In this document: positions 33,490-60,295 of the stretch, piece by piece | Position numbering within the stretch: the stretch's first letter is position 1 | How the letters are laid out: each line of letters opens with the position of its first letter | Assembly: GCA_023391185.1 (NCBI GenBank) | Contig: JAEWBI010000020.1 | Location: 5,592 to 69,591 of the forward strand | Source of the DNA: Bacillota bacterium | GTDB lineage: Bacteria; Bacillota_I; Bacilli_A; RF39; UBA660 | Direction of reading: 5' to 3' | DNA: 64,000 nucleotides | Program-made: the position numbers and the translations under genes | Notes under the pieces: model-generated | Seen by the model: only the letters and a program-made list of their open reading frames with translations | The model's database searches: none | Told to the model about the DNA's origin: nothing

Positions 33490-34122
33490 ATGAACATAGT
33501 TAAAAAATTAAGATTTGTTATTGTTTTAATTTCATTTTCTATATGTCTTTGTTTCATGAGTACTACTTATTCAAAGTATGTAGCAGGTACAACAAGTGAT
33601 ATAGAAGTACTATTTGCTAAGTGGCAGATACTTGTTAACGATGTAGATATAACTAGTAACACTAGCTCAACTGTTTCTTTTATTCCAACTATTGAGGCAA
33701 ACGAGTATGTAGCTTCAAATAAGCTTGCTCCAACTTCAAAAGGTTACTTTGATATTAATATTGATCCAACAAATGTTGATGTATCATTTAAATATACAAT
33801 AAATTTAAATGTTCTAAATGAAAATATTCCAGATTTAATGATTACAAAATATGCTATACTACCTGAAAATTTTATTGAAGGTGATCCTCTTGATTTAATC
33901 ACCCTTAATGGTTCAACAATAACAAATACTTTTAACTATGATAAAGGAATTGAAAATTTTAGTTTTAAAGCATTTACTATTAGAGTTTTCTTTGAATGGT
34001 ATGAAGGTACTGAAGAAAGTATGAATAATGAACAAGATACTAATATCGGTGAAACTGCTGTTACTGAGGACACAAAGTTCCAAATGAGTGCAAACATTGC
34101 ATTTGAGCAAATATTTAACTAA
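33490..34122 (+). CDS. Small secreted protein with a SipW-cognate-like signal, TasA-family-like.
   Basis: A 210-aa protein. The N-terminal TM is followed by TTYSKYVAGTTSD, to be compared with the TasA/CalY motif GGGT-x-A-x-F-x-D. The downstream segment LAPTSKGYFDINIDPTNVDVSFKYTINL resembles the TasA stretch LKPGD...F.F.N.G. Confidence 0.5.
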   Translation: MNIVKKLRFVIVLISFSICLCFMSTTYSKYVAGTTSDIEVLFAKWQILVNDVDITSNTSSTVSFIPTIEANEYVASNKLAPTSKGYFDINIDPTNVDVSFKYTINLNVLNENIPDLMITKYAILPENFIEGDPLDLITLNGSTITNTFNYDKGIENFSFKAFTIRVFFEWYEGTEESMNNEQDTNIGETAVTEDTKFQMSANIAFEQIFN

Positions 34123-35472: not shown

Positions 35473-36054
35473 TTAACTTTTTGAATTTGATCTTCTTTTT
35501 TCTTCTTTTGCTAGTAAAACAGAGATAAATTCATTACCAATAACAAATATTAACGGTAGGATTATAAATAAATAAAATCCTATCTTTGTACCAACAATTT
35601 TATATATTAATGAAAGCGTTACAACTCTGTATTTTACAACTCCATATAACTGGCTTTCATAAACTATAGGATCTTCAACTATATTAGTTAATCCTTTAGA
35701 ATGGAAAATATAATCTCCATTTTCATCCTTATTAATCTCTACAACTTCATGTGTAATAATCTTGTCTTTAAAACTTCCACTCTTGCCTAAATAACTAATA
35801 GTATCCCCAACTTTAATCTCAGATGGTTCAACTTCCTTTGAAACTAGAACGTCTCCTATTTTGTATCTAGGTTCCATACTTCCTGAAATTACTGTAAACA
35901 TTCTATAATTGAAGAATGATAACTTATTATCACTAAAACGTTGTAAAAATACAACAAGTATAAATGCGATTACTAAAAATATTACAATTGCATTTAATAT
36001 TTTACTAATAATATTTATTATCTTATTTTCTTTTAATTGCTTAATTAAATTCAT
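35473..36054 (-). CDS. sipW: SipW-type (ER/archaeal-type) signal peptidase I.
   Basis: A 193-aa protein with an N-terminal TM, catalytic box VISGSMEPRY, HEVV, and a C-terminal TM (IGFYLFIILPLIFVIG). This is the architecture of SipW rather than the P-type SipS/T. Confidence 0.8.
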   Translation of the reverse strand: MNLIKQLKENKIINIISKILNAIVIFLVIAFILVVFLQRFSDNKLSFFNYRMFTVISGSMEPRYKIGDVLVSKEVEPSEIKVGDTISYLGKSGSFKDKIITHEVVEINKDENGDYIFHSKGLTNIVEDPIVYESQLYGVVKYRVVTLSLIYKIVGTKIGFYLFIILPLIFVIGNEFISVLLAKEEKRRSNSKS

Positions 36055-36063
36055 TTTTTTTAC

Positions 36064-37200
36064 CTACAAATAATCTTGTGTCCTTTCTAAATATTCATCT
36101 ATCGCGCTTTTAAATTTATCTTTAATATCTGCGCTACCTACTAAGACCTTATTTTTTTCGTCTTTTATTTCAGCTGTAACCATGCTAAGTATTTGTTCCT
36201 CTGTAATTTTAATTCCACTGTTTAACATAAGCATGACTACTCTTTGCAATTGCTGCTTTATCATAATAGCAGCATATTTTTTCAATTGTTCTTTTTCTTT
36301 TCTTTTAGATGCATAAATAGAATCCAGAACAAAATAATCCATCAAAAATGAATCATCCAAAATACCTTTTAATACATCATTACCTGTACTATCTGAACTA
36401 TCGCTAGAATCAGATAAATTCTCATCATAAGTCTGTAAAAATGTCCATAATTTTGTTGCTACTTGAAAATTAGGATTCTTTAAAATTAGGTTTGTCTTTT
36501 TAATTGGTGGAATTACAAATGGGACATGAAGTTTATTTAAAGCTTTTATCATTTCACTTCGTTGCCACCCAGTAAGATAATCCTTAACTCTTTTAAGTCT
36601 TTCCTTAATTTTTTGTATTTCTTTTTTAAACTCTGATATATTTTGACCTTCAGGTAATTCTTCTAGTGAAACTTTAAATTCAATACTTACTTTTTCTCTA
36701 GAAGTTTTTGTTGAACCTGCATATTCTAAAGTTTTGGTGCTTTTTGCTTCAATGTCATCAAGCATAGCCTGTTTTTTTAAAACAAAGCGGTTCATAGTAT
36801 CTATTAATGTATAAAGAAACCTATTCTCATAAGTATTATAGGTTTCTTCAGGAAATGTTATAAATAGTTTAGATGGTTCAACATCTTCAGTCTGTTCATT
36901 AATTTTATCAATAAAATGTGTATGTCTAGTTAAGTGTTTTACACTATCTACACTAGTTTTTTTTGCTTTTTCTATTTTTACTATAGCAGACTCAGTATAT
37001 AGTGCCACTTTAGCTCTAACAACAATATTTTCAAGATATGGACAAGCATATTCAAGTTCTTCTAGCCAATTTAAAGACATTAGTTCACTTTCAAAATCTG
37101 ATTTGAAATACATTTCTGATTTCAGATTTTTTTTAAATTGTTCACTTTTTTTATTTAACTCTGCATCTACTTTAATTCTTGATTGCCTTGCCATATACAT
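36064..37200 (-). CDS. Hypothetical cytoplasmic protein, encoded directly downstream of the McrB-like AAA+ gene (the McrC-position partner).
   Basis: A 378-aa protein with no TM. It is K/E-rich with an SDSSDSSDS run. Only 10 nt separate it from the upstream gene. No convincing PD-(D/E)xK motif was seen by eye. Confidence 0.4.
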   Translation of the reverse strand: MYMARQSRIKVDAELNKKSEQFKKNLKSEMYFKSDFESELMSLNWLEELEYACPYLENIVVRAKVALYTESAIVKIEKAKKTSVDSVKHLTRHTHFIDKINEQTEDVEPSKLFITFPEETYNTYENRFLYTLIDTMNRFVLKKQAMLDDIEAKSTKTLEYAGSTKTSREKVSIEFKVSLEELPEGQNISEFKKEIQKIKERLKRVKDYLTGWQRSEMIKALNKLHVPFVIPPIKKTNLILKNPNFQVATKLWTFLQTYDENLSDSSDSSDSTGNDVLKGILDDSFLMDYFVLDSIYASKRKEKEQLKKYAAIMIKQQLQRVVMLMLNSGIKITEEQILSMVTAEIKDEKNKVLVGSADIKDKFKSAIDEYLERTQDYL

Positions 37201-37210
37201 TCACCACTCT

Positions 37211-38752
37211 CTAAAATGACTTCTTAAGTCTTTCTAAATATTGAATACATTCAGACATTGATTCATCTCCAAATGTCTTATGCAAATACTTTATAAAAGG
37301 ATCAATTTCATCACGTATTAATGAAATATTTAACTGATCAAATTTACGAAATATCTTCTTTGAAATAAAATAATCAATACCATCAACTTCTTTACCACCA
37401 CATGAAACATAAACTGGTACAAAGGCATTTAATTGTTTCATAATACGATTACCGAACGCTACGCGGAAATGATTGATAACATAAAGTTCCATATCTTGTA
37501 TTTTTTCAATTGATTTTGCGCTAACTGGTTTGTCTTCTTGAGCCTTTTTAAATAGTGATTCAAGATAACTTGAATTGATACTCATAGCTTCTTGTTCTCT
37601 ACTCTTAAATGGATCACAACGAGTATTGATATCAATTGGCATTGCACGGTCATAAACTTTATCTGTAACCATAAAAGTTGAATCATCATTATTGATTGTT
37701 CCAATATACCACAAATTGCCAGGTAATTTAAGTTTACCATCTACAATTCTTTCAGGATCATCTGCCCAACCACTTGATACAACAGGAATAATCCACTCTT
37801 CTCTAGAAGGCATTTCAAGAATTGAAAGCATCTCAGCGAAATAATATTCAACACGCGCGATATTCATTTCATCTAGAATAATTGTATGAATATCATCATC
37901 TAGACTAGCAACATAAAGTTCTACCAAAACTTTTGTTTCATTAAACTTTTTAGTGAACTCATTGAAGTACCCTATTAATTCTGTTTTATCTCTCCAAGAA
38001 GGTTCTACTGAAGCAACGCAAGAATCTTTATTTATAAATTTTCCCCATGCATATGCAAGTGAAGTCTTACCTGTTCCAGAAATACCTTGTAAAATTATTA
38101 ACTTACCAGAAGCTAATCCAGCAATAAATGCTCTTAAAAGTCCTGGTTCATAGTATAAGTGCAATTGTGTTGCCGAAAAGCAACGAAAGTTATCAACTAA
38201 TTCTTCCAGAGTAAGATTGTTATTGTAATTTTTAGGTTTAAATCCTTTGAATCTCCTATCAATACTACATAACATAGGGAATCTAGAATTAATACCTGCT
38301 AATTCATCTGCATCTAAATCTTCTTCCTCTGATAAGTTATCGCTCTCTTCTTTTTCTTTATCATCTGGTTTTAATCCTAGTTGCGAAACTTTCATAGCCA
38401 TAATTTCATCTTTTTCTTTCATAAGTTTCGCAACTTGATCATTTAAATCTGATATTTCATTTAATAAATCTTCTTGATTCATTCTCTTTTTACCTAGTTT
38501 AAAGAAACGCATTAATCGTGTAACTATTAAAAAGATTACTAAACCTACAATTATAACAAGGACTGCAACTAATATCCATAACAATATCCATTCGCCCTCT
38601 TGAAAACTTCCCTTATAACTATTTACTATCTTTAAGTATGATTTAATACTAAACATTTGGGCTAATCCTTCACCTATAGCCTTTATAATGAATAATAAAC
38701 CATCGAAAAATATTGAAATAAATTCATAGAAAAATCTTAAAAACGTATTCAT
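37211..38752 (-). CDS. Membrane-anchored McrB-family AAA+ (GTPase-type) protein.
   Basis: A 513-aa protein with an N-terminal ~80 aa carrying two TM helices, then a coiled coil. Walker A is ILQGISGTGKTS and Walker B is IILDEMNIARVEYYFAEMLSILE. The McrB-signature-like segment is YIGTINNDDSTFMVTDKVYDRA (cf. McrB GTMNTADRS...D.A.RRRF). The ATGA overlaps the upstream SipW-fusion gene. Confidence 0.65.
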   Translation of the reverse strand: MNTFLRFFYEFISIFFDGLLFIIKAIGEGLAQMFSIKSYLKIVNSYKGSFQEGEWILLWILVAVLVIIVGLVIFLIVTRLMRFFKLGKKRMNQEDLLNEISDLNDQVAKLMKEKDEIMAMKVSQLGLKPDDKEKEESDNLSEEEDLDADELAGINSRFPMLCSIDRRFKGFKPKNYNNNLTLEELVDNFRCFSATQLHLYYEPGLLRAFIAGLASGKLIILQGISGTGKTSLAYAWGKFINKDSCVASVEPSWRDKTELIGYFNEFTKKFNETKVLVELYVASLDDDIHTIILDEMNIARVEYYFAEMLSILEMPSREEWIIPVVSSGWADDPERIVDGKLKLPGNLWYIGTINNDDSTFMVTDKVYDRAMPIDINTRCDPFKSREQEAMSINSSYLESLFKKAQEDKPVSAKSIEKIQDMELYVINHFRVAFGNRIMKQLNAFVPVYVSCGGKEVDGIDYFISKKIFRKFDQLNISLIRDEIDPFIKYLHKTFGDESMSECIQYLERLKKSF

Positions 38753-41001
38753 ACTTCCTCACTCCCAAAATCCCCAACTTTATTAGATATATCTTCATAA
38801 ATTACTTTTTCTTTAAGATCATCTGGTATTAGTGAAACAATTTCCGCCAAATTCTCTAATTTTTTATTAACAAAGATATAATCTGCTATATATATATTGC
38901 CACGGTCTTTTTCTTTAATATTGCTGTCTTTACTAAAAACTAAAGCAAACTTATATCCACTTTTTTTGATTTTTTTAATAAAAACCTTATGTTTCAATAG
39001 TTCTTGAAATGTTACTAAGATAGCTGTATTCTCTTTAGAATATTTATCTTCAATCATCTTTAGTAGTTTTTCAAATTTCTTTTCTTTATCATACAAAGTC
39101 TCTGGAATATGGAAAACATACTTTTTACCAAAATCAAATGTTGTCATATCATTAATTAGTTGAATTAATAATAAAGTCACTAATACAGATATTTTATCCT
39201 CAGCCACAATTCCTTGTTCATATGTTTTATCTATAACATATGAACTATATACTTTACTAAAAGAAATATTATGTTCTAATTTCAATCCATATATTTTATT
39301 TTTAGTTGCTATTTTTTCAATATTTAGATTAAATAAATTTGTCTCTAATTTTTCAATAAAACTTTTTAATAATTCAGCATATTTTTTTTGTATAATAATT
39401 ATTTGTTTAATTAATGTATCAATCTTGTATTCATCTAATTCCTTTGAATATCTAGTCAATAGTTTTTTATAAAAATCACGTCTTGGACCTATTTCTTCAA
39501 TTGAATCTTTGGCCTTTTCAATATTAGCTATCAACATAAATACTTGTGCGTATTCATTAACTATTGCTTCATACTTGCGATTAGAACCAGTATATTTCTT
39601 AACCAAACCAGTTGATACATTGTTAATTGTCTTTTCCAGTCTTAACATTAGACTTTTCTTACTTGTTTCACTACTATCTTCTTCATAGTAATTATAATAC
39701 TTAGCATCAATATAATTAATTGTGAAAGTATTCTTAATGTTATTTCTAATTCCTGTTTCACTAACTTTTACTTTATCACTATTTATTAAAACCTTTACTA
39801 AACGATTAATCTCTTCTTTTTTTATTAACATAGCAGTATCAATTATATTTTGATTTCCTTTTCTGTCTTTCAAAAAGTTTAGATTTATTTTAGTTAAGCT
39901 TGAATCTTCTAAAATAATTTCATCGTCTTCTTCTACATCTTTATTAATAACAGGAGTATTAGTTGAATCTGATTGTTTACTATTTTTCATATTATTTGCT
40001 ATTTCTAATAGTGCAGAGCTATCTAATTCAGATATATCTACAGAAATATTTCTATATAATAAAGTTTTATCTAAATTATCCTCATCTTCAACTATATTAG
40101 TTTTTTCAATTAATTCCTCTTTTTCAACTTTATATTTTTCATCAACTTCATCATTTACTGAAATTACTCTAAAGAATGAGGTTTTACCAAGTTCATTTTC
40201 TAAATCAGCTTCAGATATTTCATCATTTTTTTGACTCGAAATTTCTTTAACCTTTTCTTCTTTTATTTCAACCGGTATATCTTCTAACCTATTTGAAACA
40301 TTAGGAACTTCAACAATTTTTCTCTCAACTTTTACTTGTTTAGTTTGTTCTTTTGAAGCTTCTATTTTTTTTCTAGGATAAACAGACTTAATAAATTTTA
40401 AAACAACTGGTATTATTCTCTTTTCAAGTACTTCTGAAATTTCATTAACTAGCATTGTTTTAGGTTTGTTACTATTTTTCTTATCGTCTTCTTTATTTTT
40501 CTTAACAACTATACTAAATAAAACTAATGTAATTATTAGAGTTATTAATACTGCTGGGTTAAATATTGTCTTTCTTAAAATTCCAAAACCAGCTAATTTT
40601 GCAACTTTCTTTCCTACTATTTGACTTTGATCTATTGGATCATCTTTTGTATTATTAGCATCACCTTTTGTTACATAAGTTCCATTATAAACCTCTATAA
40701 TACGGTGTGTTACATACTCTCCATCAATTTCATATGTTACAATATCATTTAATTTAACGTCTTGTGTTATTTTGGTAATAATCCAATCACCAGCACTTAT
40801 TTCTTTTTCCATACTGCCTGTTTGAACTTCAAATATTGAATATCCAAAAAAGTCAGTATAATTTTTATTCATTATTTTAGTTTGTATGCCTGTATATATT
40901 GTTACTAATAAAATAATTCCAAATATACCTATTAATATATTCAATAAAAAATTTATTATTTTTTCAATTATATTTATTTTTTTGGAATCGATATTTACCA
41001 C
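38749..41001 (-). CDS. SipW-type signal peptidase I domain fused to a ~550-aa C-terminal (predicted cytoplasmic) K/E-rich domain.
   Basis: A 750-aa protein. It has an N-terminal TM, catalytic boxes FEVQTGSMEKEI, VTHRIIEV and TKGDANNTKDDP (boxes B, D and E of S26 peptidases), a second TM (VLITLIITLVLFSIVV), and then a long hydrophilic extension. Confidence 0.65.
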   Translation of the reverse strand: MVNIDSKKINIIEKIINFLLNILIGIFGIILLVTIYTGIQTKIMNKNYTDFFGYSIFEVQTGSMEKEISAGDWIITKITQDVKLNDIVTYEIDGEYVTHRIIEVYNGTYVTKGDANNTKDDPIDQSQIVGKKVAKLAGFGILRKTIFNPAVLITLIITLVLFSIVVKKNKEDDKKNSNKPKTMLVNEISEVLEKRIIPVVLKFIKSVYPRKKIEASKEQTKQVKVERKIVEVPNVSNRLEDIPVEIKEEKVKEISSQKNDEISEADLENELGKTSFFRVISVNDEVDEKYKVEKEELIEKTNIVEDEDNLDKTLLYRNISVDISELDSSALLEIANNMKNSKQSDSTNTPVINKDVEEDDEIILEDSSLTKINLNFLKDRKGNQNIIDTAMLIKKEEINRLVKVLINSDKVKVSETGIRNNIKNTFTINYIDAKYYNYYEEDSSETSKKSLMLRLEKTINNVSTGLVKKYTGSNRKYEAIVNEYAQVFMLIANIEKAKDSIEEIGPRRDFYKKLLTRYSKELDEYKIDTLIKQIIIIQKKYAELLKSFIEKLETNLFNLNIEKIATKNKIYGLKLEHNISFSKVYSSYVIDKTYEQGIVAEDKISVLVTLLLIQLINDMTTFDFGKKYVFHIPETLYDKEKKFEKLLKMIEDKYSKENTAILVTFQELLKHKVFIKKIKKSGYKFALVFSKDSNIKEKDRGNIYIADYIFVNKKLENLAEIVSLIPDDLKEKVIYEDISNKVGDFGSEEV

Positions 41002-41135
41002 AACTAAACGCCCACTTTCCTATTTTCATTGTCTATATAATTTTACCATAAATCGACATTCTTTACAACAATATCAAAATTATTTTAACAAAAAAATACA
41101 TGATTAAGTTCATGTATTTTTTATATTATATTTTA

Positions 41136-41714
41136 CTATACTGATTGTTCTTCTTTACCATATTTTAGTTCTATAATTAATGCATAGAATTCATATATAA
41201 ATATTAAGAAACTTGGTACAAGAACAATAAATAAAAATCCCCATTTTGATTCAATTATTGATAAAAAACCACCAATTTTTTCATATACTTTGCTAGATTT
41301 ACCTATAACAAAATCCATTGAATAAGCTGCTCCGTTTTCAAAAGAAATCGCGTCATCATCAGGATGTGTCTGACCGACTTTTCCTAAATCAATACTAACT
41401 GAACCATCAGAAGCAATTTTATATGCAAATATTTCATCACCTACTGCAATTTTGTCTATCTTTTTAGCTTCTACAAAAACTAAATCACCTTTTTTATAAT
41501 TTTCAGAAGATAAGTCTCCTTTTATTAAGATTAAAGATGTGTCCCCAAATTGCGTAACACCATATTTATTAAAATTTAATAATAGTAATGTAACTGCTAT
41601 TACAAATGCAAAAAATATGACTCCAAGTATTCCTACTAATATTTTCTTTATAGCTTGTATTACCTTCATTTTATCACCTACTACAATAATAACATAATTC
41701 GACATAGTTATCAA
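41136..41714 (-). CDS. SipW-like pseudo-peptidase (SipW topology but lacking the catalytic SGSM/H motifs).
   Basis: A 192-aa protein with N- and C-terminal TM segments and the spacing KGDLVFV...VGDEIFAY like SipW. The Ser box is replaced by LILIKGDLSS. Confidence 0.45.
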   Translation of the reverse strand: MITMSNYVIIVVGDKMKVIQAIKKILVGILGVIFFAFVIAVTLLLLNFNKYGVTQFGDTSLILIKGDLSSENYKKGDLVFVEAKKIDKIAVGDEIFAYKIASDGSVSIDLGKVGQTHPDDDAISFENGAAYSMDFVIGKSSKVYEKIGGFLSIIESKWGFLFIVLVPSFLIFIYEFYALIIELKYGKEEQSV

Positions 41715-41737: not shown

Positions 41738-42640
41738 TTAACACCCACTTGTTTCTTCAACAGAAAATTCTTCAACATTATAATTTTGACTAAAAATTTT
41801 CTTGTAAAACATAAGGCTCTTACTGTCCTTTCCATTTATACTAAATTTAATTTCGTTAATATATCCATTCGAATCACTCATATAAGAACTAAAGCTATTA
41901 ATATCTTCATTTATGGATAATTTATTAGAATCCCAAGTAATTTTAATACATTTTTCACTTTGAAAAGAATTAGATACAACTAATCTGTCATAATTAGTGT
42001 AATTCTTATAATTCAAAGATATTTTCTCAGTTGTTATATCACTTTTATGAAGTATAAAATTACCACTTAATGTTTTACGATATGGTGAATTACTTGTAAG
42101 AGTTATATTGACAACTAAATCAGTTAAGGTATACTCAGGATCAGTTGCAACAATGTCAAAATATAACTTATTCTCTACTGTTTCATTTTTCCACTTATAC
42201 CCTTCTAATTCACATGTTTCCTTATTATAACTACTTACATCAATTCCATCAGTACTATTATTTTCACAATTTTGGATACTAGTAAGTACCCCGTCTTGTA
42301 CATTTGAGTCACTACCATTTAAATTGCATTTTGCTTTAGTAGCAGCTTCACCTTCGATAGTACACGTTGCAGTATAATTAATATCATAGCCTGTTGCGAC
42401 ACTACTATTCAGACTATTTTTAATATTAAAAAATACACTATCACCATTCCAAAGATTATTAACATTTTTTAAAGTAGTATCACCTAAGTTTTCACTGCTC
42501 AGATAAAAACCGTTTGATTCTAAATAATAATTCCATATTGAATTTGATACATATTTTCCATAAGTAAAACTAAGTATACCTATAAAGAAGCTTATTATAA
42601 GTATCATTATTTTAAATTTATGTTTTTTTATTAATTCCAT
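41738..42640 (-). CDS. Secreted Cys-containing hypothetical protein with a SipW-cognate-like signal.
   Basis: A 300-aa protein with an N-terminal TM followed by SFTYGKYVSNS. It is Asn/Ser/Thr-rich and has about 10 Cys. Confidence 0.45.
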   Translation of the reverse strand: MELIKKHKFKIMILIISFFIGILSFTYGKYVSNSIWNYYLESNGFYLSSENLGDTTLKNVNNLWNGDSVFFNIKNSLNSSVATGYDINYTATCTIEGEAATKAKCNLNGSDSNVQDGVLTSIQNCENNSTDGIDVSSYNKETCELEGYKWKNETVENKLYFDIVATDPEYTLTDLVVNITLTSNSPYRKTLSGNFILHKSDITTEKISLNYKNYTNYDRLVVSNSFQSEKCIKITWDSNKLSINEDINSFSSYMSDSNGYINEIKFSINGKDSKSLMFYKKIFSQNYNVEEFSVEETSGC

Positions 42641-42651
42641 ATTTCATCATC

Positions 42652-43203
42652 CTAATCTTTTGTTTTTTGCCAGCTATTAATTTCTATATTAATAAAATCA
42701 ACTAAATCTGCATTTATCTGATCATTATACTCTGATGGAAAACTAACTTTAAGTTTATATTGTTTTGCTTGTGCTGTTTCAAATCCTAGTTCCTGTACTG
42801 GAGAATTACAAACTAATTCGTTTTCTGCATTACGTGAATAATTCTCATCACATGTAAGAACCAATTGCTCTTCTTCAGCATTTAAACTATATAAACTAAT
42901 AATAAGAGGAACTAGATGATATGTCTTAATTATTATTTTATATTCAACTGCTACATTACTTATTTTATCTAAATCATTATTAGTTATGGAAAAATCATAT
43001 TCTTTAGTTTCACCTGGCTTTAAATCAATTATTGATAATTCAAGCTCATCTAAACTTTTTGTATTAAATACAAATTTTGCAATTCCTCTATCTATATTTT
43101 CCATTGTAACATTGGAATTGAAAAATGAATATGTTATTCCACAACCAAATAATATCATTGCAAGCAATAAAACAATTGTTAAAAGTTTATATTTTAGCAC
43201 CAT
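42652..43203 (-). CDS. Small TasA-like secreted protein with a SipW-cognate-like signal.
   Basis: A 183-aa protein with GCGITYSFFNSNVTMENIDRG...LSIIDLKPGETKEYDFSITNN. Compare the TasA segments GGGTWAAFNDIKS and NLSNLKPGDKLTKDFQFENNGS. Confidence 0.55.
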   Translation of the reverse strand: MVLKYKLLTIVLLLAMILFGCGITYSFFNSNVTMENIDRGIAKFVFNTKSLDELELSIIDLKPGETKEYDFSITNNDLDKISNVAVEYKIIIKTYHLVPLIISLYSLNAEEEQLVLTCDENYSRNAENELVCNSPVQELGFETAQAKQYKLKVSFPSEYNDQINADLVDFINIEINSWQKTKD

Positions 43204-43210: not shown

Positions 43211-46200
43211 CTACTTAACAATAAAATATTTATCTATTGTTCCAATCTTCTTATTTCCATCATATAATTCAAATACGTACTTATACCCAGTATTTTCAAA
43301 ATTACTAGTTATAAGCGTTATGATAAATTGATTATATTGATTTGGATCTGTTGATAAATAATAAACATTATCACTTGCGCTTACTAGCGTATTTGTAACA
43401 TAACTAGCTAAATTTACAATTGAATAGTTTTGATTATACGCTGTTAATAGATCCTTTTTATATAATGAAACTCTTATATTAGGATCAGATAATAGACCGT
43501 TTTGTTCAATATTTAATTCTACATCTACAGTAGTATTTGTTTTACTAATAATTCGGTCTTCACTATTCATGTTTACATCAAAACCATATTCAATATTATT
43601 TAAATTAGTATTTGTTACAGTAACAGGAATAATGATTTCATTAGTATTTATTTCATTTGAATAATAGCCATCAAATGCTACATAGTTAGTAATTTTCAAA
43701 TAATATGTGCCGTAAGCTAAATTACTATTATTATCATAAGTAGTAACCTTTAGTTCTTTAGTGTAATCTTGTAATGCACTACCTAAATTAATTCTAATGA
43801 TATTATCTTTACCTGGATAATAAACGTTTTCTCCAATTTTAAATACCATATTTTTAAGGTACTCGCTACCAAGAGAAGTACCATTTGAATCAACTAATTT
43901 AATAGATAATCCTGTTTCCTTATCTTCATACTTAGTATCAATTATTTTATGAGTATCTAAATATTTATAAACTATATTACTGTTTAATGGAATAGTTGTT
44001 ACAGAATCACTATTAAGAACTATTGGGTTTCCCGTGTATGATGTCGATATATTCAAATAAGCACTTGATGATTGATCATCAATAACTGAATATATATTAA
44101 ACTTACTAATGGTATTATTTAAAGTTGGTCTAACAGTATTACCACTTTGATTATTTAACTGTATCTGCATACTAACATCACTATAATTAACATTTATTTC
44201 AGTATTTGATAGGTCTAAAATAATACTAAAGTTTTCATTAACCTCACTATTATTGGTATAAGTACTCTCACCAAAATATTTAATGGTAGAGCCTGTACCT
44301 ACTTCTTTAAATAAAGTGAATGGATAAGTGGCCTTTTTAATACAATTAGTATCTTCTACTGGACAGCTTTCTTCATACCCATAATTATCTTCACTTGTGT
44401 TGACAACATATTCATAAACATTATTTGTTATGTAATCAATTAAGGTTATCTTTGATCCTAATGGTAAAAGAATATTGGAAACTAAATTATGAGTATGATT
44501 ACTATAATCTAATTCAGTCGTACTTGTATAAGTGAAATTCATCATAATTGATGATTTATCTGTTATATTATTACCATCTTCTATATAACTAGAGCTATTT
44601 CGACCTATTGTAAAACTATTTTGTGAATAACCATCAAATATTAAATAATCAGTACTTAAGTAGCTAGCGTAATTAAAATTATCCATTATTTTAATATAAA
44701 TAATATGAATACCGTTTGTATTAATTAATATATTTTCTTCTGCAGAATAACTTGTCCATTTATCATCAGATAAATTATTTAAATCATTAGTACTTAACAA
44801 TGTATCAGTAATATAATATCCTATACTTGAAATACCTGATATAGTATCACTTTCTGTGACTGTAATTTCTTTTGGCCCATCAATATAAATTTTCTCTGGG
44901 TTACTTTGAAGTTCAGTCCACTGTCTTGTTTCCATATTTATAGTTGCACTTGCTCCAGGTAAATCAAGAATTAATAAATCACTATTTATATAAAATATAT
45001 TGTCATTATAATCTATTACTTTAGCATATATAATATAAAATCCCTCGTCAGATATTTGTACAATGTTTGAATATATATTCCATGTACCAATATTTTTTAT
45101 CTCATTTAAAGTAAGTGGAGTTACAGAATTACTTATATAATAATATATTTCTTTTATAGGTCTTAGTTCATCCGTTTCTTCTATACTAAAAGTAATATTA
45201 GAACTTAACTTAACTTCACTAATTTCAGGACTAAAATTATCCCAAGAATATATATTTGCATGCAAATTTGCGATTGGATTATTAATATCATCAATAAATA
45301 AAATTGGTAATGATTCATCATTATAAACCCATACATCTTCATTATTTATTAGTAAATTATTAAAATCAGTAAATTCATCATAAAATAAATTATTAACCAT
45401 ATTTGTTTTTATTTGTAAATCGGAAACTGTTACAGTATTAAATTGTCCTAATACTATGCCATTATCTTCTTCTATAGCAGAAACTAGGCTAACGTAATAA
45501 GAATTATTTATGTTAACACTAGTATTATTAATAGTTCCTATAGTATAAATATCACTTGTATCAAAAGTTTTATCTATCAATATAGGACTTGTATTATTAG
45601 TTATGGTACCTACTAAACCGCCAATTTTTGTTCCTGTAATTATGCCGTTATTATAGTCTTTTGAGAGAGTAGCACTTGTTGTATTTTTTTCAATTGTTCC
45701 TACTAAGCCACCGCCTATAATATTACTACTTACATTTCCTGTGTTATATGACTGATTAATATGAGCTGTGTTAACCATAGTTCCAATTAAACCACCTGCT
45801 ACACTATAGCCATATATATAGCCTTTATTAACAGTATTTTCAAATGTTGTATTATTTGCTATAGCAGTTATTCCACCAGATACACCGTAATTATAGTTTA
45901 CATTATAACTAATATTTGAAAGAGTTAATGAAGCACCATCTAATGACCTAGTAATTACTGACAAATTATTTAACACAGTAGTTCCAAGATTAATTTCAAA
46001 CGAACCATTTGAAAGAGTTACTCCATTAATACTTATAGATGTTTCATTTTCAGTCGCACCACTAATTGTATAGTTACCAGTAATAGATGTATTTAATATT
46101 TCTCCACCTTCATATGGAATATAATTTGACAAATCTAAATTCGTAATCGTTTCTAATGAACTCATATTAATTTCTACATCCTCTAAATTAGATGTTGATA

Positions 46201-46909
46201 ATTTAGATAAATCACTATTTTTACCTATTACATATCCATTAAATAAGGCGTTTTTTATAGTAGCATTTGTTGAAGTACTTGTGATACCTGCGGTAACCTT
46301 GCCACCATATATTAATGAATTTTCTACATATAAATCCGTAATACTTCCCTGCATATTAGTAAACAAAGCAAGTTCCTCACTTGTTTCACTAGTAATATAA
46401 GAGCCATATATTCTATATGAATTGCCATTAAAATATCCTTTAAAATTATTTAATGAAGGAAATACATTTATACTTCCAGCTTCATTTGTTTTTTCTATGT
46501 CAGAATAATACTTGTTTGTATATTCCTCAACATAATAAGTTGTTCCATTTAAAATATATAAAATACCTTGTTCTTGGTCATATTTAAATACTCCATTATT
46601 TAATACAATGTCATCACTTAAAGAAAAATAAAGACCTTCATAAGTATTATTAGCAAGTTCATTAGAAAAATAAGCAAGCTCTGAACCGTTAGATATTATG
46701 TATGGATCACTAGATGTTCCTATTCCTTTTTTATAACTAGTTGCAACTGTTCCATCCCAAACTAAATTAGTTACTATATTACGATGTTTAAACCTCGCAA
46801 ATGTAGGAATACCAATAGACACAAATAAAATAAGTCCTATAATAAAAGATAAAAAGACTATTTTTTGTGATTTATTTAAGCCACTAACAAATCTTTTTAT
46901 TTGCCTCAT
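43211..46909 (-). CDS. Giant (1232 aa) Asn/Thr/Ser/Gly-rich secreted protein with a SipW-cognate-like N-terminal signal. Probable fibre or adhesin.
   Basis: The signal-anchor is followed by GIPTFARFKHRN. The composition is beta-rich and repetitive (GGLVGTI..., NNTT...), with no LPXTG motif. Confidence 0.5.
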   Translation of the reverse strand: MRQIKRFVSGLNKSQKIVFLSFIIGLILFVSIGIPTFARFKHRNIVTNLVWDGTVATSYKKGIGTSSDPYIISNGSELAYFSNELANNTYEGLYFSLSDDIVLNNGVFKYDQEQGILYILNGTTYYVEEYTNKYYSDIEKTNEAGSINVFPSLNNFKGYFNGNSYRIYGSYITSETSEELALFTNMQGSITDLYVENSLIYGGKVTAGITSTSTNATIKNALFNGYVIGKNSDLSKLSTSNLEDVEINMSSLETITNLDLSNYIPYEGGEILNTSITGNYTISGATENETSISINGVTLSNGSFEINLGTTVLNNLSVITRSLDGASLTLSNISYNVNYNYGVSGGITAIANNTTFENTVNKGYIYGYSVAGGLIGTMVNTAHINQSYNTGNVSSNIIGGGLVGTIEKNTTSATLSKDYNNGIITGTKIGGLVGTITNNTSPILIDKTFDTSDIYTIGTINNTSVNINNSYYVSLVSAIEEDNGIVLGQFNTVTVSDLQIKTNMVNNLFYDEFTDFNNLLINNEDVWVYNDESLPILFIDDINNPIANLHANIYSWDNFSPEISEVKLSSNITFSIEETDELRPIKEIYYYISNSVTPLTLNEIKNIGTWNIYSNIVQISDEGFYIIYAKVIDYNDNIFYINSDLLILDLPGASATINMETRQWTELQSNPEKIYIDGPKEITVTESDTISGISSIGYYITDTLLSTNDLNNLSDDKWTSYSAEENILINTNGIHIIYIKIMDNFNYASYLSTDYLIFDGYSQNSFTIGRNSSSYIEDGNNITDKSSIMMNFTYTSTTELDYSNHTHNLVSNILLPLGSKITLIDYITNNVYEYVVNTSEDNYGYEESCPVEDTNCIKKATYPFTLFKEVGTGSTIKYFGESTYTNNSEVNENFSIILDLSNTEINVNYSDVSMQIQLNNQSGNTVRPTLNNTISKFNIYSVIDDQSSSAYLNISTSYTGNPIVLNSDSVTTIPLNSNIVYKYLDTHKIIDTKYEDKETGLSIKLVDSNGTSLGSEYLKNMVFKIGENVYYPGKDNIIRINLGSALQDYTKELKVTTYDNNSNLAYGTYYLKITNYVAFDGYYSNEINTNEIIIPVTVTNTNLNNIEYGFDVNMNSEDRIISKTNTTVDVELNIEQNGLLSDPNIRVSLYKKDLLTAYNQNYSIVNLASYVTNTLVSASDNVYYLSTDPNQYNQFIITLITSNFENTGYKYVFELYDGNKKIGTIDKYFIVK

Positions 46910-47039: not shown

Positions 47040-48707
47040 TTAACCTTTTTTAATAAGTTTATCTACTTGCGTAATAAACCAAATTTTTTCTATTGTTGTT
47101 TCACTATTTTCAATCTCTTTTATTCTTAAAATAAAATCAATTTTATTAGATAATGTACTTAAGTCATTAGGATTCAAATCATCTTCAGTTATATTTATAT
47201 TGTTAAGTCTATACTTATTAACAATAATTCTTGCGATATTATTATCACTAAAAACACTTAAACTATTAGTAATAACATTAGTTGGATCCTTTGCAAACGA
47301 GTCAAAATCATCACTATGTTTAATTATTTCATCATAATTAGATAGATTAAATACTTTTCTAATAGCTATTTTTTTGAAATAATCAAAACTATAGTATATA
47401 TTTAAAAATTCTGATACTGTAAGTGTTTTACTTAAAATAGAAACAATTTTTTTCTTAAAATATAACTCTTCAGACTCTTTATATAATTGATATAGTTCTT
47501 GTGCTAAATTTATAGAATCAATTTTCATTTGTCTTAATGAAGTTGCAGAAGAAACTGCTTTCCCAGGTATTTTAATACCAAATATTGCTTTGGTATCATT
47601 TCCCATAATAGATTTATTAATTTTTTCCAATTTTGCTTCTTTCTCTGCAATATGCTCTTCAATACTTTTACTATTAGTATTTCCAGAACTACTTCCCTTT
47701 GTAGTTGAAGTAACTTCTGGCACTATAGATTTTTCGAATTCTAATTTAAAATTATTTATTAACGGAGTGCAATCTACATAGTTTTTATACTCATTAATAT
47801 TTCTTCGTAATTTTTCTAAATTATCATAGAATTTCTTTGAAGAGTTTTCATCTTCCATATCGAATTTATCAATCATCATATTGTTATAAATAGAAATTCT
47901 AGTTTTGTTATTAGGAAAAAAAGTATTAATATCAACTGCGCCTGACTTAGCAAGATCAACTATATCATTAATTGTTTCTCTATTATCATTTTTGATTTTA
48001 TTGTATGCAACTTTTAGCTTATCAATACAATCTGAGTAACTAGTAACATGATTTTTTTCTTTGATCTTATTTTGAAGATCTGTTATATATGAATTGAAAG
48101 CTTTTTCATTTTTTTTAATTAATTTTCTGAAATTTAATTCAATATGATTAATTATATCAGGATTAACCCAATATATTTTTTCAAAAATATCAGCAATCTT
48201 GTCGTAATTACTACTTCCTTCATTTCTAATTTCTAAAAATGCCGTCATATATTCATTAACATAGCAAGTATAGGTAAAATCTTTCTTGCTAAGTTTTATA
48301 CCAGCTAACTCAAATTTTTCTAAAAATTGACTTATAAATTCATTTACAGAATTGAAATTCAAATCATTATAATTACCTATTTGATATAACAATTCATCTA
48401 ATTTCATCTTTTCTAAAAAAGTATTTGTTGGATTTAATATAAATCTAACTTCCTCTAATACATCTATTTTGTTTTCTAATTCCTCTTTTGAGTTTTCAAC
48501 TTCTTTAATATTAAAACTTCTACTTTTTGCTTCTATATATTTTTTCACACTAGTTTTATAGTCAATATATTTTTCCGAAATAGAATCTATTTTCTCGTTA
48601 AACTTCTTAATATCTCTCTTTGTTTTAGTTGGCAAAGTGGAAATCAATATTTTTTTAGCTTCAATGTCTTCTTCAATAAAATTTAAAAAATTACTCATCT
48701 TTACCAC
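47040..48707 (-). CDS. Hypothetical cytoplasmic coiled-coil-rich protein, last gene of the paralog operon.
   Basis: A 555-aa protein with no TM or signal. There is a 17-nt overlap with the upstream small ORF. Confidence 0.45.
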   Translation of the reverse strand: MVKMSNFLNFIEEDIEAKKILISTLPTKTKRDIKKFNEKIDSISEKYIDYKTSVKKYIEAKSRSFNIKEVENSKEELENKIDVLEEVRFILNPTNTFLEKMKLDELLYQIGNYNDLNFNSVNEFISQFLEKFELAGIKLSKKDFTYTCYVNEYMTAFLEIRNEGSSNYDKIADIFEKIYWVNPDIINHIELNFRKLIKKNEKAFNSYITDLQNKIKEKNHVTSYSDCIDKLKVAYNKIKNDNRETINDIVDLAKSGAVDINTFFPNNKTRISIYNNMMIDKFDMEDENSSKKFYDNLEKLRRNINEYKNYVDCTPLINNFKLEFEKSIVPEVTSTTKGSSSGNTNSKSIEEHIAEKEAKLEKINKSIMGNDTKAIFGIKIPGKAVSSATSLRQMKIDSINLAQELYQLYKESEELYFKKKIVSILSKTLTVSEFLNIYYSFDYFKKIAIRKVFNLSNYDEIIKHSDDFDSFAKDPTNVITNSLSVFSDNNIARIIVNKYRLNNINITEDDLNPNDLSTLSNKIDFILRIKEIENSETTIEKIWFITQVDKLIKKG

Positions 48708-48873
48708 CCACCTTTTCTTCCTCTATTACAATTTTTGCTTCTTCTAAAAATTGCGTGAAGTCTATAATATCTTCATAAACTTTTACTAATTCTTCTAAAG
48801 TAAGAGTTGATAAATCAAAATTAACTGTTTTTTCTTCTTTCTTCATAATATCACCCTTTTTCTTCTTATTCAT
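48691..48873 (-). CDS. Small acidic hypothetical protein (60 aa), translationally coupled on both sides.
   Basis: It overlaps the upstream paralog by 8 nt and the downstream gene by 17 nt. It may not be a real gene. Confidence 0.3.
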   Translation of the reverse strand: MNKKKKGDIMKKEEKTVNFDLSTLTLEELVKVYEDIIDFTQFLEEAKIVIEEEKVGGKDE

Positions 48874-50029
48874 AGCCAGCTAAATCTTTAATAAAGTTGA
48901 TTGAAATTAATATTTCAGCACCCTTTGAATTGACCTCTAGACTATCTAGATCTTGTCCTTCAATCCATACATATACTCTAAGTTTTGTTATTCCATCGGG
49001 TAATGAAAATATTGATTTTTCAAAATCTTTAATAGTATTTTGCAATGAAAAATGTGCAGTATCAAGAGGGATTCCTGACCCCTCTTGTCCATTAATGAAT
49101 TCAAGTTTTTTTCCTTCCGAAATTATTGCGTAAGTTGGAAAAAATGTACCATCATTTAGTTCTAATTTATAATCTTCTTTTATTCTTTCAAAAGAAGTCT
49201 CGGAATGTTTGTCACTATTTGGTTCATAAATTGACATTTGACAATCATTATTACACTCTATATTTTGAATTGTATTAACATCAGCTTTATTTGAAACAGT
49301 TCCAACTTTTACAAATCCAAAACGCATAGAATTCATTATGCCAGATAATTCTTCTGCTACATCTTCAGGGGTATCTTCGTCTAAGTCTACTTTTGTTTCA
49401 TCTAAATATAAATTATCAGGAATTGGAGAACCACTTACATTCTTTAGAAAAACATCAAATGCAATATAAGAATTCGCACTATTTGGTTTATCTTCTTTTA
49501 GTTTTATCGTACTCAGTGTTTTTCTTCCTGTAAGCTTACTTTTTAAACGGCTAACTTGTCCTTGATAGACACTAAATTTATCATCATTATTGCTGGCTAT
49601 TCCATTACTAGATACCGGCCATAAACCAGAACTAGCCCACTGATTAGTATTATTCGGATATACAGCCTCTAAGTCGTTTATTACAGAATCCAATGATATA
49701 ACTATATCTTCTGTGAATTTAACTCCATCTAATGAAATAAATAAACCACTATCACTAGAAACAACAACATTTAGAGACTTAACTTTAACATTAACGTTAA
49801 CAGATAGCCATGCATATGTTGAAACTGTAAAAACTATGCCACTAAAGAATGTAACTAAAACTAAAATTCTCGAACTTATTTTTTTTGATTTTTCTTTATT
49901 TTGTGTGTTTTCTTTAGTTTTTTTATTGCTAACTACTTTTTTTCTATTGGTGCTTGATTTTTTCTTAACGTTGGTTTTAATCTTTTTTTTATCGTTTTTT
50001 TCTTTCACAAGCCACCTCCTAAAACCCAA
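48866..50029 (-). CDS. Secreted paralog E of the STYAW(F/L) SipW-cognate-signal family (divergent, Lys-rich N-terminal tail).
   Basis: A 387-aa protein with ...FTVSTYAWLSVNVNVKVKSL.VVVSSDSGLFISLDG... and C-terminal motif LRVYVWIEGQDLDSLEV. Confidence 0.5.
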   Translation of the reverse strand: MGFRRWLVKEKNDKKKIKTNVKKKSSTNRKKVVSNKKTKENTQNKEKSKKISSRILVLVTFFSGIVFTVSTYAWLSVNVNVKVKSLNVVVSSDSGLFISLDGVKFTEDIVISLDSVINDLEAVYPNNTNQWASSGLWPVSSNGIASNNDDKFSVYQGQVSRLKSKLTGRKTLSTIKLKEDKPNSANSYIAFDVFLKNVSGSPIPDNLYLDETKVDLDEDTPEDVAEELSGIMNSMRFGFVKVGTVSNKADVNTIQNIECNNDCQMSIYEPNSDKHSETSFERIKEDYKLELNDGTFFPTYAIISEGKKLEFINGQEGSGIPLDTAHFSLQNTIKDFEKSIFSLPDGITKLRVYVWIEGQDLDSLEVNSKGAEILISINFIKDLAGYE

Positions 50030-51313: not shown

Positions 51314-52009
51314 CTACTTATTAGTTATTTGTGAATTAAATTCCATATGCATTGTGATTTCTCCACCCAAGATGTTATCAGTACATTCCATATCATTTCC
51401 CTCTAACCACACTACAATTGTATATTTATTAATATCTCCTGGTTTAAAATTTTCAACATGCTCTTGCATAATTAGTTCATCGCTTTTAAATGCAACAGTT
51501 CCCTTTTCGGGATTAATACCATCATTTGATACTTTAGCATAAGTAGTATAACTACCATTTCTATATAGACGAATTCTAACTACATTATCAAGTCCTTTAA
51601 TAGCATCATCAATAAACATTTCTGACCAATAATCTGTTATATCTACACCTGTATTTTCAATATAAAATGTATATGCCATATAATTATCGCCATTATGCTC
51701 ACCATCATATGCATCTAAATCTGCTGGAAGCCATTTTTCAGCCATATTATCAAAATAAGGTAATGTTTTCATGAATAATTCTGATCTATAAACTTTATAA
51801 TTAGGATCATCATACACTATTAAACTTCTTTGAGTGTATAAGTTTTTATCTAGTGTAATTGTAAAATTACCATTACTATAAATTAAACTAACGACTACAT
51901 AAGAAATAAGCAACATTAAAAACAAAAATAAAATACTTAATTTTAATAATCTTCTTACTTTCTTCTTTGATTTACGTTTTTCAACATTATTCTTTATTTT
52001 CACTTCCAT
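51314..52009 (-). CDS. Divergent, short paralog F (membrane-anchored; lacks the STYAWF motif but retains the C-terminal ...VVWLEGNDMEC... motif).
   Basis: A 231-aa protein. The N-terminal TM is LLKLSILFLFLMLLISYVVV. The segments VRIRLY and YTIVVWLEGNDMECTDN align with LR(V/I)YVYIEGQD(I/V)DNYD of the other paralogs. Confidence 0.45.
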   Translation of the reverse strand: MEVKIKNNVEKRKSKKKVRRLLKLSILFLFLMLLISYVVVSLIYSNGNFTITLDKNLYTQRSLIVYDDPNYKVYRSELFMKTLPYFDNMAEKWLPADLDAYDGEHNGDNYMAYTFYIENTGVDITDYWSEMFIDDAIKGLDNVVRIRLYRNGSYTTYAKVSNDGINPEKGTVAFKSDELIMQEHVENFKPGDINKYTIVVWLEGNDMECTDNILGGEITMHMEFNSQITNK

Positions 52010-57633: not shown

Positions 57634-58024
57634 ATTAGTAATGATAATAACTCTAATTGATAATCAAGTCATTAGTTCATCTAATATTAACAGGGAGATT
57701 AATCATATTAAGTGAAATGATTGAAACATTCATTACTATTATTATTCATAGACAAAATGTTTGCTTATAATACCCTATTTATAGGCTATTCTAGAAACTA
57801 TTGTTCAAAGCGTATCAAATGTATACTGTAGTGATTAAATAGTCTTATATGGCGATTAAACAAGTTGTTTTATATACTGGGGGGTATCAGAAATATTTAC
57901 TAAGTTATATTATGAAAAAATGGCGATAGCACCTTGCTTAATCGTGTTGCAATAATAATCGAATGATAATCTTAATGTTTCTAATCATAATCACATAAAT
58001 TCAATTAGATAAGGTTGTGATATA

Positions 58025-59461: not shown

Positions 59462-59503
59462 TACTTCTTTTTATTGTTTTAATGATATAATATATATGGT
59501 GAT

Positions 59504-60268: not shown

Positions 60269-60295
60269 AAGAGATTATATTTTTAATCTCTTTTA
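60267..60295. terminator. Bidirectional hairpin terminator between convergent genes.
   Basis: aaaagagattaTATTTTtaatctctttt lies between the stop of gene 59504-60268 (+) and the stop of the UvrD-like gene (-). Confidence 0.55.

Follow-up and report, generated by a model that had tools for sequence, protein, structure and literature searches.

A SipW-type signal peptidase with a predicted folded cytoplasmic tail, encoded directly before a membrane-anchored McrB-like GTPase

We analyzed a stretch of 64,000 nucleotides from a Bacillota bacterium (the window; GenBank assembly GCA_023391185.1, contig JAEWBI010000020.1, positions 5,592 to 69,591) and found that one open reading frame (ORF) on its minus strand encodes a 750-amino acid (aa) protein, in which a signal peptidase domain is continued by a tail of ~580 residues. 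This protein is a new architectural variant of the SipW-type peptidases, and it sits in a class of systems, CoCoPALM, which has been named but is uncharacterized. The genes for a McrB-like GTPase and its McrC-like partner follow directly, and we lean, by a modest degree, toward viewing the 750-aa protein as a transmembrane (TM) adaptor that couples the cytoplasmic GTPase motor to signal-peptide cleavage during fiber assembly. The parts of the protein and its two neighbors are located as follows, with coordinates counted in the window.

38749..41001, minus strand: whole ORF, 750 aa, with an endoplasmic reticulum (ER)/SipW-type signal peptidase, a second TM segment (TM2), a predicted cytoplasmic linker, a helical domain, and a predicted EAL-like barrel
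40492..41001, minus strand: domain of the signal peptidase together with its two TM anchors (residues 1-170), placed by TIGR02228, invariant catalytic residues, and hydropathy
39889..40497, minus strand: variable acidic/basic linker (residues 169-371), predicted to be cytoplasmic, length-variable and poorly aligned across homologues
40156..40197, minus strand: linker motif copy 1, NELGKTSFFRVISV (residues 269-282), from regular expression and alignment
40039..40080, minus strand: linker motif copy 2, DNLDKTLLYRNISV (residues 308-321), also from regular expression and alignment
39337..39888, minus strand: all-helical domain (residues 372-555) with a conserved KYYN motif, from AlphaFold2 models
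38752..39336, minus strand: beta/alpha barrel (residues 556-750) with the signature HNISFSKVYS.Y.IDKTY..GI.AEDK, from AlphaFold2, Foldseek, and invariant residues
37211..38752, minus strand: membrane-anchored McrB-like GTPase, 513 aa, with a hydrophobic/TM N terminus, a coiled-coil-like stretch, and an AAA+ domain
36064..37200, minus strand: McrC-like protein, 378 aa, with an N-terminal DUF2357 domain (Pfam, 27.4 bits against a threshold of 23.3)

The protein is read from a single ORF of 750 codons opened by GTG, with a Shine-Dalgarno-like ribosome-binding site of the AGGAAAG type ~9 nucleotides 5' of this start. Residues 15-166 matched TIGR02228 (sigpep_I_arch, archaeal/ER-type signal peptidase I) with 60.1 bits, above the cut-off of 51.85, and Pfam Peptidase_S24 was matched with 24.2 bits against a cut-off of 23.3. 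The initial annotation, made from the DNA sequence alone, had described the catalytic boxes B, D, and E as intact, and they proved to be invariant in 33 aligned homologues: G62-S63-M64 in box B, T98-H99-R100 in box D, and G113-D114-x-N116...D120-P122 in box E. The catalytic set is therefore made up of S63, H99, and D114/D120, which is the Ser/His(/Asp) type and not the Ser/Lys dyad of P-type enzymes; the corresponding triad of Bacillus subtilis SipW is Ser47/His87/Asp106 (PMC8767453). Against NF046067, the equivalog of the Bacillus SipW, the protein reached 50 bits where 190 are required, and its length also departs from the ~190 aa of that family. Because the equivalog cut-off is missed, we refer to the enzyme as SipW-type and not as a SipW orthologue. 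From its conserved residues, the 750-aa protein is a real membrane signal peptidase of the ER/SipW type and is predicted to be active.

Hydropathy analysis placed two strong hydrophobic segments in all 33 homologues, at ~9-39 (TM1) and ~146-168 (TM2), so that the second TM segment originally proposed to follow the catalytic domain is present in every one of them. TM2 is directly followed by KKNKEDDKKNSNKPK, and the first 20 residues past it carry a mean of 5.4 K+R across the 33 homologues. The C-terminal residues of SipW lie on the cis (cytoplasmic) side, as stated in the literature (PMC8767453, citing Terra 2012). Homology to SipW, the two-TM layout, and the K/R bias together argue for a cytoplasmic location of everything after TM2, in support of the initial annotation; we set the lack of Cys in the tail beside the charge bias in this topology argument.

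The fusion itself is widespread. A database search with the 750-aa protein returned 953 homologues, and the best 120 of these were mostly full length (650-810 aa) with 40-55% identity. Scanning one genome per species gave 115 relatives, 80 loci of which were kept, and a relative is present in no fewer than 115 species-representative genomes. In 77 of 82 loci, the peptidase domain and the tail share an unbroken frame of 646-836 aa, measured between stop codons. A contig end truncates four of the remaining loci; in the last one (L051), the ORF of the tail is closed on its upstream side, and the match to the peptidase reaches the contig end. The fusion is kept in all 77 complete loci. The initial annotation had considered that the tail might be a separate ORF joined by a sequencing frameshift. 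The two parts are indeed separate genes in some other lineages, as would suit an assembly or frameshift artefact that links a ~190-aa peptidase gene to a distinct downstream gene. We nevertheless rejected this explanation and regard it as extremely improbable, because the same unbroken fusion recurs in 77 independent assemblies from many studies and the alignment is continuous through TM2 and the linker.

All carriers in the species scan are uncultured metagenome-assembled genomes (MAGs) from guts and anaerobic digesters. Their labels are mostly Bacilli, Bacillota, Mollicutes, and Tenericutes, with a minority of others, such as Muribaculaceae and Ignavibacteriales. Homologous tails on such peptidases, which the initial annotation had proposed to look for in Clostridia, do exist, but their carriers are uncultured Bacilli/"Mollicutes" MAGs. 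The tail was absent from the plasmid and phage collections searched, and a mobile-element origin of the tail was rejected on this ground. The window is chromosomal, with PrkC/PP2C/RlmN, UvrA, SpoVAC/SpoVAD, ClpC, and a sigma factor encoded around the cluster, and the guanine-plus-cytosine (GC) content of the host is 27%. Given these housekeeping and sporulation genes, the host is thus a walled and probably spore-forming member of the Bacillota. The SpoVAD and SpoVAC homologues lie at 16819-18248 on the minus strand (E values of 9e-121 and 1e-31). The gene content indicates that the host is an endospore former or the descendant of one, despite the "Mollicutes" or "Tenericutes" labels on the MAG records of many relatives.

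The tail (residues 171-750) contains 14.5% K, 11.2% E, 11% I, and 7.6% N but neither Cys nor Trp, and no match to it was found in Pfam, NCBIfam, or PADLOC. The homologue alignment resolves it into three parts, namely, the linker, the helical domain, and the beta/alpha domain. Thus, the K/E/N-rich tail of ~550 aa described in the initial annotation is correct as to composition; in place of a low-complexity stretch, however, we found a folded two-domain module preceded by a motif-bearing linker. The linker motif, [DE][DE]LxKTxx[YF]RxIxV, is present in 0-4 copies per homologue and in two copies in the window protein, and the last copy is followed by a conserved xSExDxTLLEIAxNE. Recognizable variants of the motif also precede the tail module in relatives that are TM-anchored and lack a peptidase (P0201, P0192, and P0187).

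AlphaFold2 was run twice on residues 372-750, with alignments of 25 and 95 sequences, and gave models with pLDDT (predicted local distance difference test) scores of 83.2 and 87.3 and predicted template modeling (pTM) scores of 0.84 and 0.87. In these models, the tail is a folded module of a helical and a beta/alpha domain. While no structural or sequence neighbor was found for the helical domain, a Foldseek search of the PDB returned EAL domains exclusively among the top 14 and top 17 matches of the two models. The best E value for the barrel was 9.4e-4, at a probability of 1.0, and the first seven matches of the better model are all the degenerate EAL domain of FimX, a regulator of type IV pilus biogenesis, including its complexes with cyclic di-GMP (c-di-GMP) and PilZ. 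Confidence in the barrel signature segment, HNISFSKVYS.Y.IDKTY..GI.AEDK, was low with the shallow alignment and rose with the deep one; this segment and the linker motifs are a candidate interface. No residue but E601, which lies in the AEDK motif, is invariant in all architectures of the tail module, and the catalytic and metal motifs of EAL enzymes (EAL, Asn, ExxE, DD, Lys, EGVE, and Gln) were not recognizable in the barrel, with positional equivalence judged by eye. Because these motifs are unrecognizable and E601 alone is invariant, the barrel is EAL-like but, judged by its sequence, certainly not an active phosphodiesterase.

FimX, which acts with PilZ and PilB in the type IV pili of Xanthomonas and Pseudomonas, provides the solved structures closest to the barrel, and its degenerate EAL domain is an adaptor to a hexameric pilus NTPase. 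It differs from the tail in that no sequence homology between the two is detectable and its c-di-GMP-binding residues cannot be mapped onto the barrel. Moreover, the partner of FimX is a PilB-type ATPase, whereas the window encodes an AAA+ McrB-type GTPase and a domain tethered to a signal peptidase, in a monoderm host.

The tail module also occurs outside the fusion. When 1.8 billion representative proteins were searched with a profile, 377 clusters were obtained, and unfused forms include standalone proteins of ~320-357 aa that span the whole module, proteins in which it sits on a plain TM anchor (P0201 and P0192), and proteins with an acidic soluble N terminus (P0198, P0207, and P0239). In P0215, from a distant system, the module is fused to a copy of a degenerate pseudo-peptidase rather than to an active domain. 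In each sampled context, the module is directly followed by a gene of ~500-550 aa that is 47-60% identical to the window GTPase, and in L085 and L087, the two contexts that extend far enough, a DUF2357 gene comes next. L083, L084, and L087 encode a distinct orthologue of the fused peptidase domain nearby, of ~180-200 aa; in L083 and L084, where the module is unfused, it lies upstream. As the module keeps the same position before the McrB-like gene whether it is fused or not, the series represents a fusion/fission (Rosetta-stone) pattern.

In the fused lineage, the GTPase gene starts between -4 and +16 nucleotides from the tail stop in every locus tested (at least 75 loci), and the DUF2357 gene is always the next one after it. 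In the window, the tail stop and the GTPase start overlap as ATGA, and the GTPase ribosome-binding site, GGGAGTGAGGAAG, lies within the codons of GDFG(S/G)E, the conserved C terminus of the tail (38749-38775, minus strand). Part of the conservation of this peptide may therefore be a nucleotide-level constraint. From its genomic distribution, we regard the tail module as a third conserved core component beside the GTPase and the DUF2357 protein. The initial annotation had proposed that the tail could couple processing to the adjacent AAA+ protein; the gene linkage indeed goes beyond adjacency, yet the partner is a McrBC-type pair and not a generic AAA+ protein. That the tail physically contacts the GTPase/McrC pair, and in which direction the coupling would run, we infer from comparative genomics.

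The GTPase has a hydrophobic N terminus with a very strong TM segment at 60-78, followed by RLMRFFKLGKKR. Past this segment, a conserved heptad-like stretch, LNDQVxKLMKEKDEIMAMKV, is succeeded by an acidic linker and then by the AAA+ domain, which aligns with Escherichia coli McrB (E value of 5e-5 to 6hz4; also NF008457). The PADLOC candidate PDC-M26A matched the protein at 3e-35. Across 76 sequences, Walker A (GISGTGKTS), the core of Walker B (LDEMN), and the signature N354-N355-D356 do not vary, while position 357 is D in 74 sequences and E in two. NNDD by itself could be read as NxxD; because two sequences carry E357, we take the signature to be NxD. DUF2357 was matched by 25/25 homologues of the McrC-like protein (best E value of 2.4e-14), and at the level of hidden Markov models none of these 25 matched a nuclease family.

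The pair shares with E. coli McrBC an AAA+ GTPase with Walker A/B and Nx(x)D motifs and a DUF2357 partner encoded directly downstream. In place of the DNA-binding N-terminal domain of E. coli McrB, however, the window GTPase has a membrane anchor and a coiled coil. Likewise, canonical McrC has a PD-(D/E)xK nuclease, whereas the window partner has no recognizable one, and the pair sits in a cluster of secretion and surface-protein genes. By these features, the window pair is predicted not to be a canonical McrBC type IV restriction system.

The closest published description is that of the CoCoPALM class, which Bell et al. 2024 name in two sentences and defer to a forthcoming paper (PMC11090510). 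According to that text, CoCoPALM comprises a NxD McrB GTPase fused to an FtsB-like TM segment and coiled coil, and a defensive function is predicted for its sister clade, CoCoNuT (PMC11090510). In common with the class as described there, the window locus has a NxD GTPase with an N-terminal TM segment and a coiled-coil-like stretch, a McrC (DUF2357) homologue, associated proteins of the signal peptidase family, and a Bacillota host. As far as the predicted proteins can tell, its NxD GTPase, DUF2357 partner, and signal peptidases match the testable features of CoCoPALM. The published text, as far as it is accessible, contains no ~580-aa cytoplasmic tail, third core module, pseudo-peptidase, or family of secreted proteins, and the part of the supplementary files of the CoCoNuT paper that we consulted mentions neither CoCoPALM nor signal peptidases. 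No later paper using the name CoCoPALM was found in a literature search, and one paper that names both SipW and McrB refers to mcrB only as an E. coli strain genotype. As far as we can tell, the folded tail, the third core component, the pseudo-peptidase, and the motif-sharing secreted proteins are undescribed. CoCoPALM would thus gain a third core component, a module that is fused to a peptidase or to a pseudo-peptidase, TM-anchored, or free.

The 750-aa protein and its two partners belong to a cluster that extends over ~33.5-56.6 kb of the window (~23 kb) and contains the following further genes.

33490..34122, plus strand: divergently oriented secreted protein, 210 aa, TTYSKY past the TM segment
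34213..35445, minus strand: secreted protein, 410 aa, N-terminal TM segment then VTLAWF, position in the cluster conserved
35473..36054, minus strand: second SipW-type signal peptidase, of ordinary length (193 aa; TIGR02228, 78.6 bits)
41136..41714, minus strand: probable pseudo-peptidase paralogue, 192 aa (hhalign 97.7% to the 193-aa family)
41738..42640, minus strand: secreted protein, 300 aa, FTYGKY past the TM segment, N-terminal ~90 aa homologous to the 183-aa protein (hhalign 95.5%)
42652..43203, minus strand: small secreted protein, 183 aa, candidate major fiber subunit
43211..46909, minus strand: giant secreted protein, 1232 aa, PTFARF past the TM segment
47040..48707, minus strand: cytoplasmic helical protein, 555 aa, no TM segment, conserved cluster member
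48691..48873, minus strand: small acidic cytoplasmic protein, 60 aa, conserved cluster member
48866..50029, minus strand: secreted protein, 387 aa, STYAWL past the TM segment
50046-51299, minus strand: paralogue of the 387-aa protein by blastp, 417 aa, STYAWF
51314-52009: 231-aa ORF among the paralogues of the 387-aa protein
52211-53470, minus strand: paralogue of the 387-aa protein by blastp, 419 aa, STYAWF
53648-55267, minus strand: paralogue of the 387-aa protein by blastp, 539 aa, STYAWF, with a C-terminal Bact_surface_Ig-like domain (Pfam)
55314-56618, minus strand: paralogue of the 387-aa protein by blastp, 434 aa, STYAWF

The order peptidase-tail, GTPase, DUF2357 protein, 193-aa peptidase, 410-aa protein, and, on the opposite strand, 210-aa protein is found in essentially every locus. 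The upstream block, which encodes the proteins of 387, 60, 555, 1232, 183, 300, and 192 aa, is usually adjacent and sometimes relocated. In the family of the 193-aa protein, the catalytic Ser is present in 79/79 sequences and the His in 78/79, the remaining residue being an ambiguous X; by these residues, the protein is predicted to be a second active SipW-type peptidase. In the 192-aa protein, which is present in nearly all loci, the Ser position is S/T and the catalytic His is not conserved, for which reason we consider it a probable pseudo-peptidase. Essentially every locus thus encodes two predicted active and one degenerate SipW-type peptidase. Comparison of the tail and the 555-aa, 60-aa, McrC-like, and GTPase proteins by hhalign revealed no hidden paralogy.

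Ten cluster proteins share a single N-terminal TM helix directly followed by the motif T-[YFL]-[ASG]-x-[FYL]. It takes the forms GITYSFFNS in the 183-aa, FTYGKYV in the 300-aa, VTLAWFA in the 410-aa, PTFARFK in the 1232-aa, and TTYSKYV in the 210-aa protein, and STYAW[FL] in the 387-aa protein and its paralogues. The SipW-cleaved end of the TasA signal peptide reads GGTWA↓AFND, and we take the resemblance of the cluster motif to it as a lead only. In the 183-aa family, G-I-T-Y-S-x-F-x-S is at least 90% conserved. The paralogues of the 387-aa protein were recognized with blastp E values of 1e-33 to 1e-39, and all four carry LSxSTYAWF(V/I)GMRTV after the signal-anchor helix; their main bodies belong to no Pfam or NCBIfam family. 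Peptidase_M73 (camelysin/TasA) was matched below threshold by 9/25 homologues of the 183-aa protein (best E value of 6.8e-4), and the profile of this protein had no sequence match in the PDB. Cys118 and Cys132 are invariant in the 183-aa family, while the 580-aa tail has no Cys; a disulfide in an extracytoplasmic subunit and a cytoplasmic position of the tail would agree with this pattern.

SipW operons of other bacteria are among the closest known systems. Like the window protein, the SipW enzymes of B. subtilis (tapA-sipW-tasA) and Clostridium perfringens (sipW-bsaA-bsaB-bsaC) are of the ER-type Ser/His/Asp class, have two TM anchors, and are encoded beside fiber-forming substrates. B. subtilis SipW is bifunctional, and its second, nonproteolytic function maps to the cytoplasmic C terminus (PMC8767453), while for BsaA fibers the proposal is that precursors anchored in the membrane undergo donor-strand exchange and are then cleaved by SipW (PMC11580942). 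SipW, however, has ~190 aa and a tail of ~20 residues, compared to the folded tail of ~580 residues predicted for the window protein. Furthermore, the tasA and bsa operons contain no NTPase, and the window cluster encodes two predicted active peptidases, a probable pseudo-peptidase, and about ten candidate substrates.

If the 750-aa protein is indeed an adaptor, its peptidase would lie outside the membrane, and the linker, the helical domain, and the degenerate EAL-like barrel would dock inside onto a ring of the membrane-tethered GTPase and its McrC-like plug. The approximately ten cluster proteins with the TasA-like motif would be exported by Sec and kept anchored by their signal peptides. 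The peptidase-tail protein, the GTPase ring, and the McrC-like protein could then form an assembly platform, in which nucleotide-dependent changes of the motor would pass through the tail and TM2 and gate or position signal-peptide cleavage. The timing of cleavage would in turn control the ordered polymerization of a surface fiber or pilus. This cleavage-paced polymerization is modeled on SipW and BsaA, where cleavage is thought to follow donor-strand insertion (PMC11580942), and would apply here by analogy. In its most far-reaching form, which we put forward tentatively and regard as somewhat doubtful, the cluster would be a novel route to filaments in monoderm bacteria, in which a membrane-tethered, McrBC-derived GTPase is coupled through an EAL-like pseudo-enzyme module to a signal peptidase, and nucleotide hydrolysis paces both cleavage and TasA-like donor-strand polymerization.

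Several points weigh against the adaptor model. The EAL likeness of the barrel is weak, with Foldseek E values of 1e-3 to 5e-2, template modeling scores of 0.41-0.55, and identities of 9-15%. None of 25 tail members matched Pfam EAL (PF00563) at E values up to 10, a PDB profile search with the tail returned no EAL chain and only spurious TPR-like matches, and hhalign of the tail against a PDB-built EAL alignment, a shallow template profile of 3 sequences, gave a probability of at most 0.1% even with a 219-sequence tail profile. The FtsB likeness of the GTPase N terminus amounts to weak FtsL matches (E values of 0.016 and 0.034), as a generic TM segment and coiled coil would give, and none of 26 GTPase homologues matched DivIC/FtsB in Pfam. 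The fiber or pilin nature of the secreted proteins is deduced from the short motif and the sub-threshold Peptidase_M73 match, which for the 183-aa protein was 18.9 bits against 22.5, and none of the cluster secreted proteins matched an NCBIfam family. The bulk of the processing could be done by the 193-aa peptidase instead of the fused one. Last, we know of no precedent for a McrB-type GTPase doing mechanical or regulatory work on a peptidase.

Three other explanations were weighed against the adaptor model. The tail might be a FimX-like receptor for a second messenger, c-di-GMP or another nucleotide, that switches the peptidase or fiber assembly, with the GTPase regulated in parallel. Both AlphaFold2 models have FimX EAL domains, including c-di-GMP and PilZ complexes, as their best structural neighbors; degenerate EAL domains serve as c-di-GMP receptors on pilus ATPases, in part according to the PDB descriptions of 4fou and 7lkq; and the most conserved tail segment is found in the barrel at its beta2/helix junction, a place where the ligand sites of EAL domains concentrate. 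Yet no sequence-level relation of the tail to EAL was found, template modeling scores were mostly below 0.5, and the EAL, DDFG(T/A)G, and EGVE motifs are unrecognizable, leaving E601 as the sole universally conserved acidic residue. A regular-expression search of 1.5 Mb around 87 loci, which covered these neighborhoods and not whole genomes, found no GGDEF or canonical EAL motif, and DDFG[TA]G was absent from every locus. We therefore consider a receptor role unlikely, although it is compatible with the adaptor model and may be layered on it.

Two further readings seem to us more improbable still, and about equally so. According to one, the cluster is a conflict or defense system derived from McrBC, in which the GTPase and the McrC-like protein sense invasion and the peptidases and secreted proteins act as effectors or as a surface barrier. 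It is favored by the descent of the GTPase and the DUF2357 protein from components of type IV restriction, by the strong match to the PADLOC defense candidate PDC-M26A, and by the defensive role predicted for the sister clade CoCoNuT (PMC11090510). However, the McrC homologue has no detectable nuclease, the McrB N terminus is a membrane anchor and not a DNA reader, about ten structural-looking secreted proteins are co-encoded, housekeeping genes flank the cluster, and the tail was not found on the plasmids and phages searched. Moreover, across at least 80 species with 35-55% identity, the gene order of the 15-23 kb cluster hardly varies, which fits vertical inheritance rather than a patchy defense island. 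According to the other, the tail is uncoupled from the motor and serves as a scaffold or dimerization domain, or as a SipW-like signaling extension, its adjacency to the GTPase merely reflecting a shared operon. In B. subtilis, the 20 residues of the SipW cytoplasmic tail switch on matrix genes, and this function does not depend on peptidase activity (PMC8767453), so that a second function at the cytoplasmic C terminus has a precedent. Against this, the unfused module still lies directly upstream of the McrB-like gene in every sampled architecture, the tail stop and the GTPase start overlap or are 0-16 nucleotides apart in at least 75 loci, and Pfam and NCBIfam searches found no DNA-binding or transcription-factor domain in the tail.

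Signal peptidases are normally seen as stand-alone housekeeping enzymes; here, in at least 115 species-level genomes of Bacilli from guts and digesters, one appears to be firmly tied to a nucleotide-driven machine in the cytoplasm. Should the coupling prove real, it would constitute a new pathway of filament assembly or secretion control in Gram-positive bacteria, and the motor of McrBC restriction would have been taken over for a role at the cell surface. If the filament route outlined above were true as well, the cluster would represent a counterpart, driven by NTP and made of restriction-enzyme parts, of chaperone-usher or type IV pilus assembly. The fusion/fission series predicts contacts between the partners, which makes the hypothesis directly testable.

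Apart from the intergenic region at 41002-41135 (minus strand), between the 192-aa gene and the peptidase-tail gene, the cluster has no sizeable gap. Just past the 192-aa gene, this region contains an A/T-rich hairpin (TACATGA-n6-TCATGTA) with a T run behind it, which suggests that a transcriptional boundary is marked here. The gap falls at the same point as the relocation of the upstream block seen in some genomes (e.g., L045, L067, L069, and L072). A scan of the AT-rich DNA for promoter and terminator consensus sequences was uninformative, with 130 sites compared to 140 expected, and no Rfam family matched in the window.

Beyond the cluster, the right end of the window (57061-63785) resembles an integrated element. 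It contains a truncated D-Ala-D-Ala carboxypeptidase fragment of 181 aa, a large serine recombinase (58025-59461, plus strand), and a protein with a DpnII/MboI-like nuclease domain (59504-60268). These are accompanied by a Gabija-like pair, in which an OLD-family ATPase with AAA_15 and TOPRIM domains (62196-63785) occurs together with a UvrD-like helicase (60293-62239). The GC skew changes sign at 58-60 kb. At the other side of the window, a 126-aa protein (9324-9704, minus strand) carries the N-terminal methylation motif of type IV pilins (N_methyl, E value of 6e-8); therefore, conventional type IV pilin-like genes are present as well, apart from the cluster.

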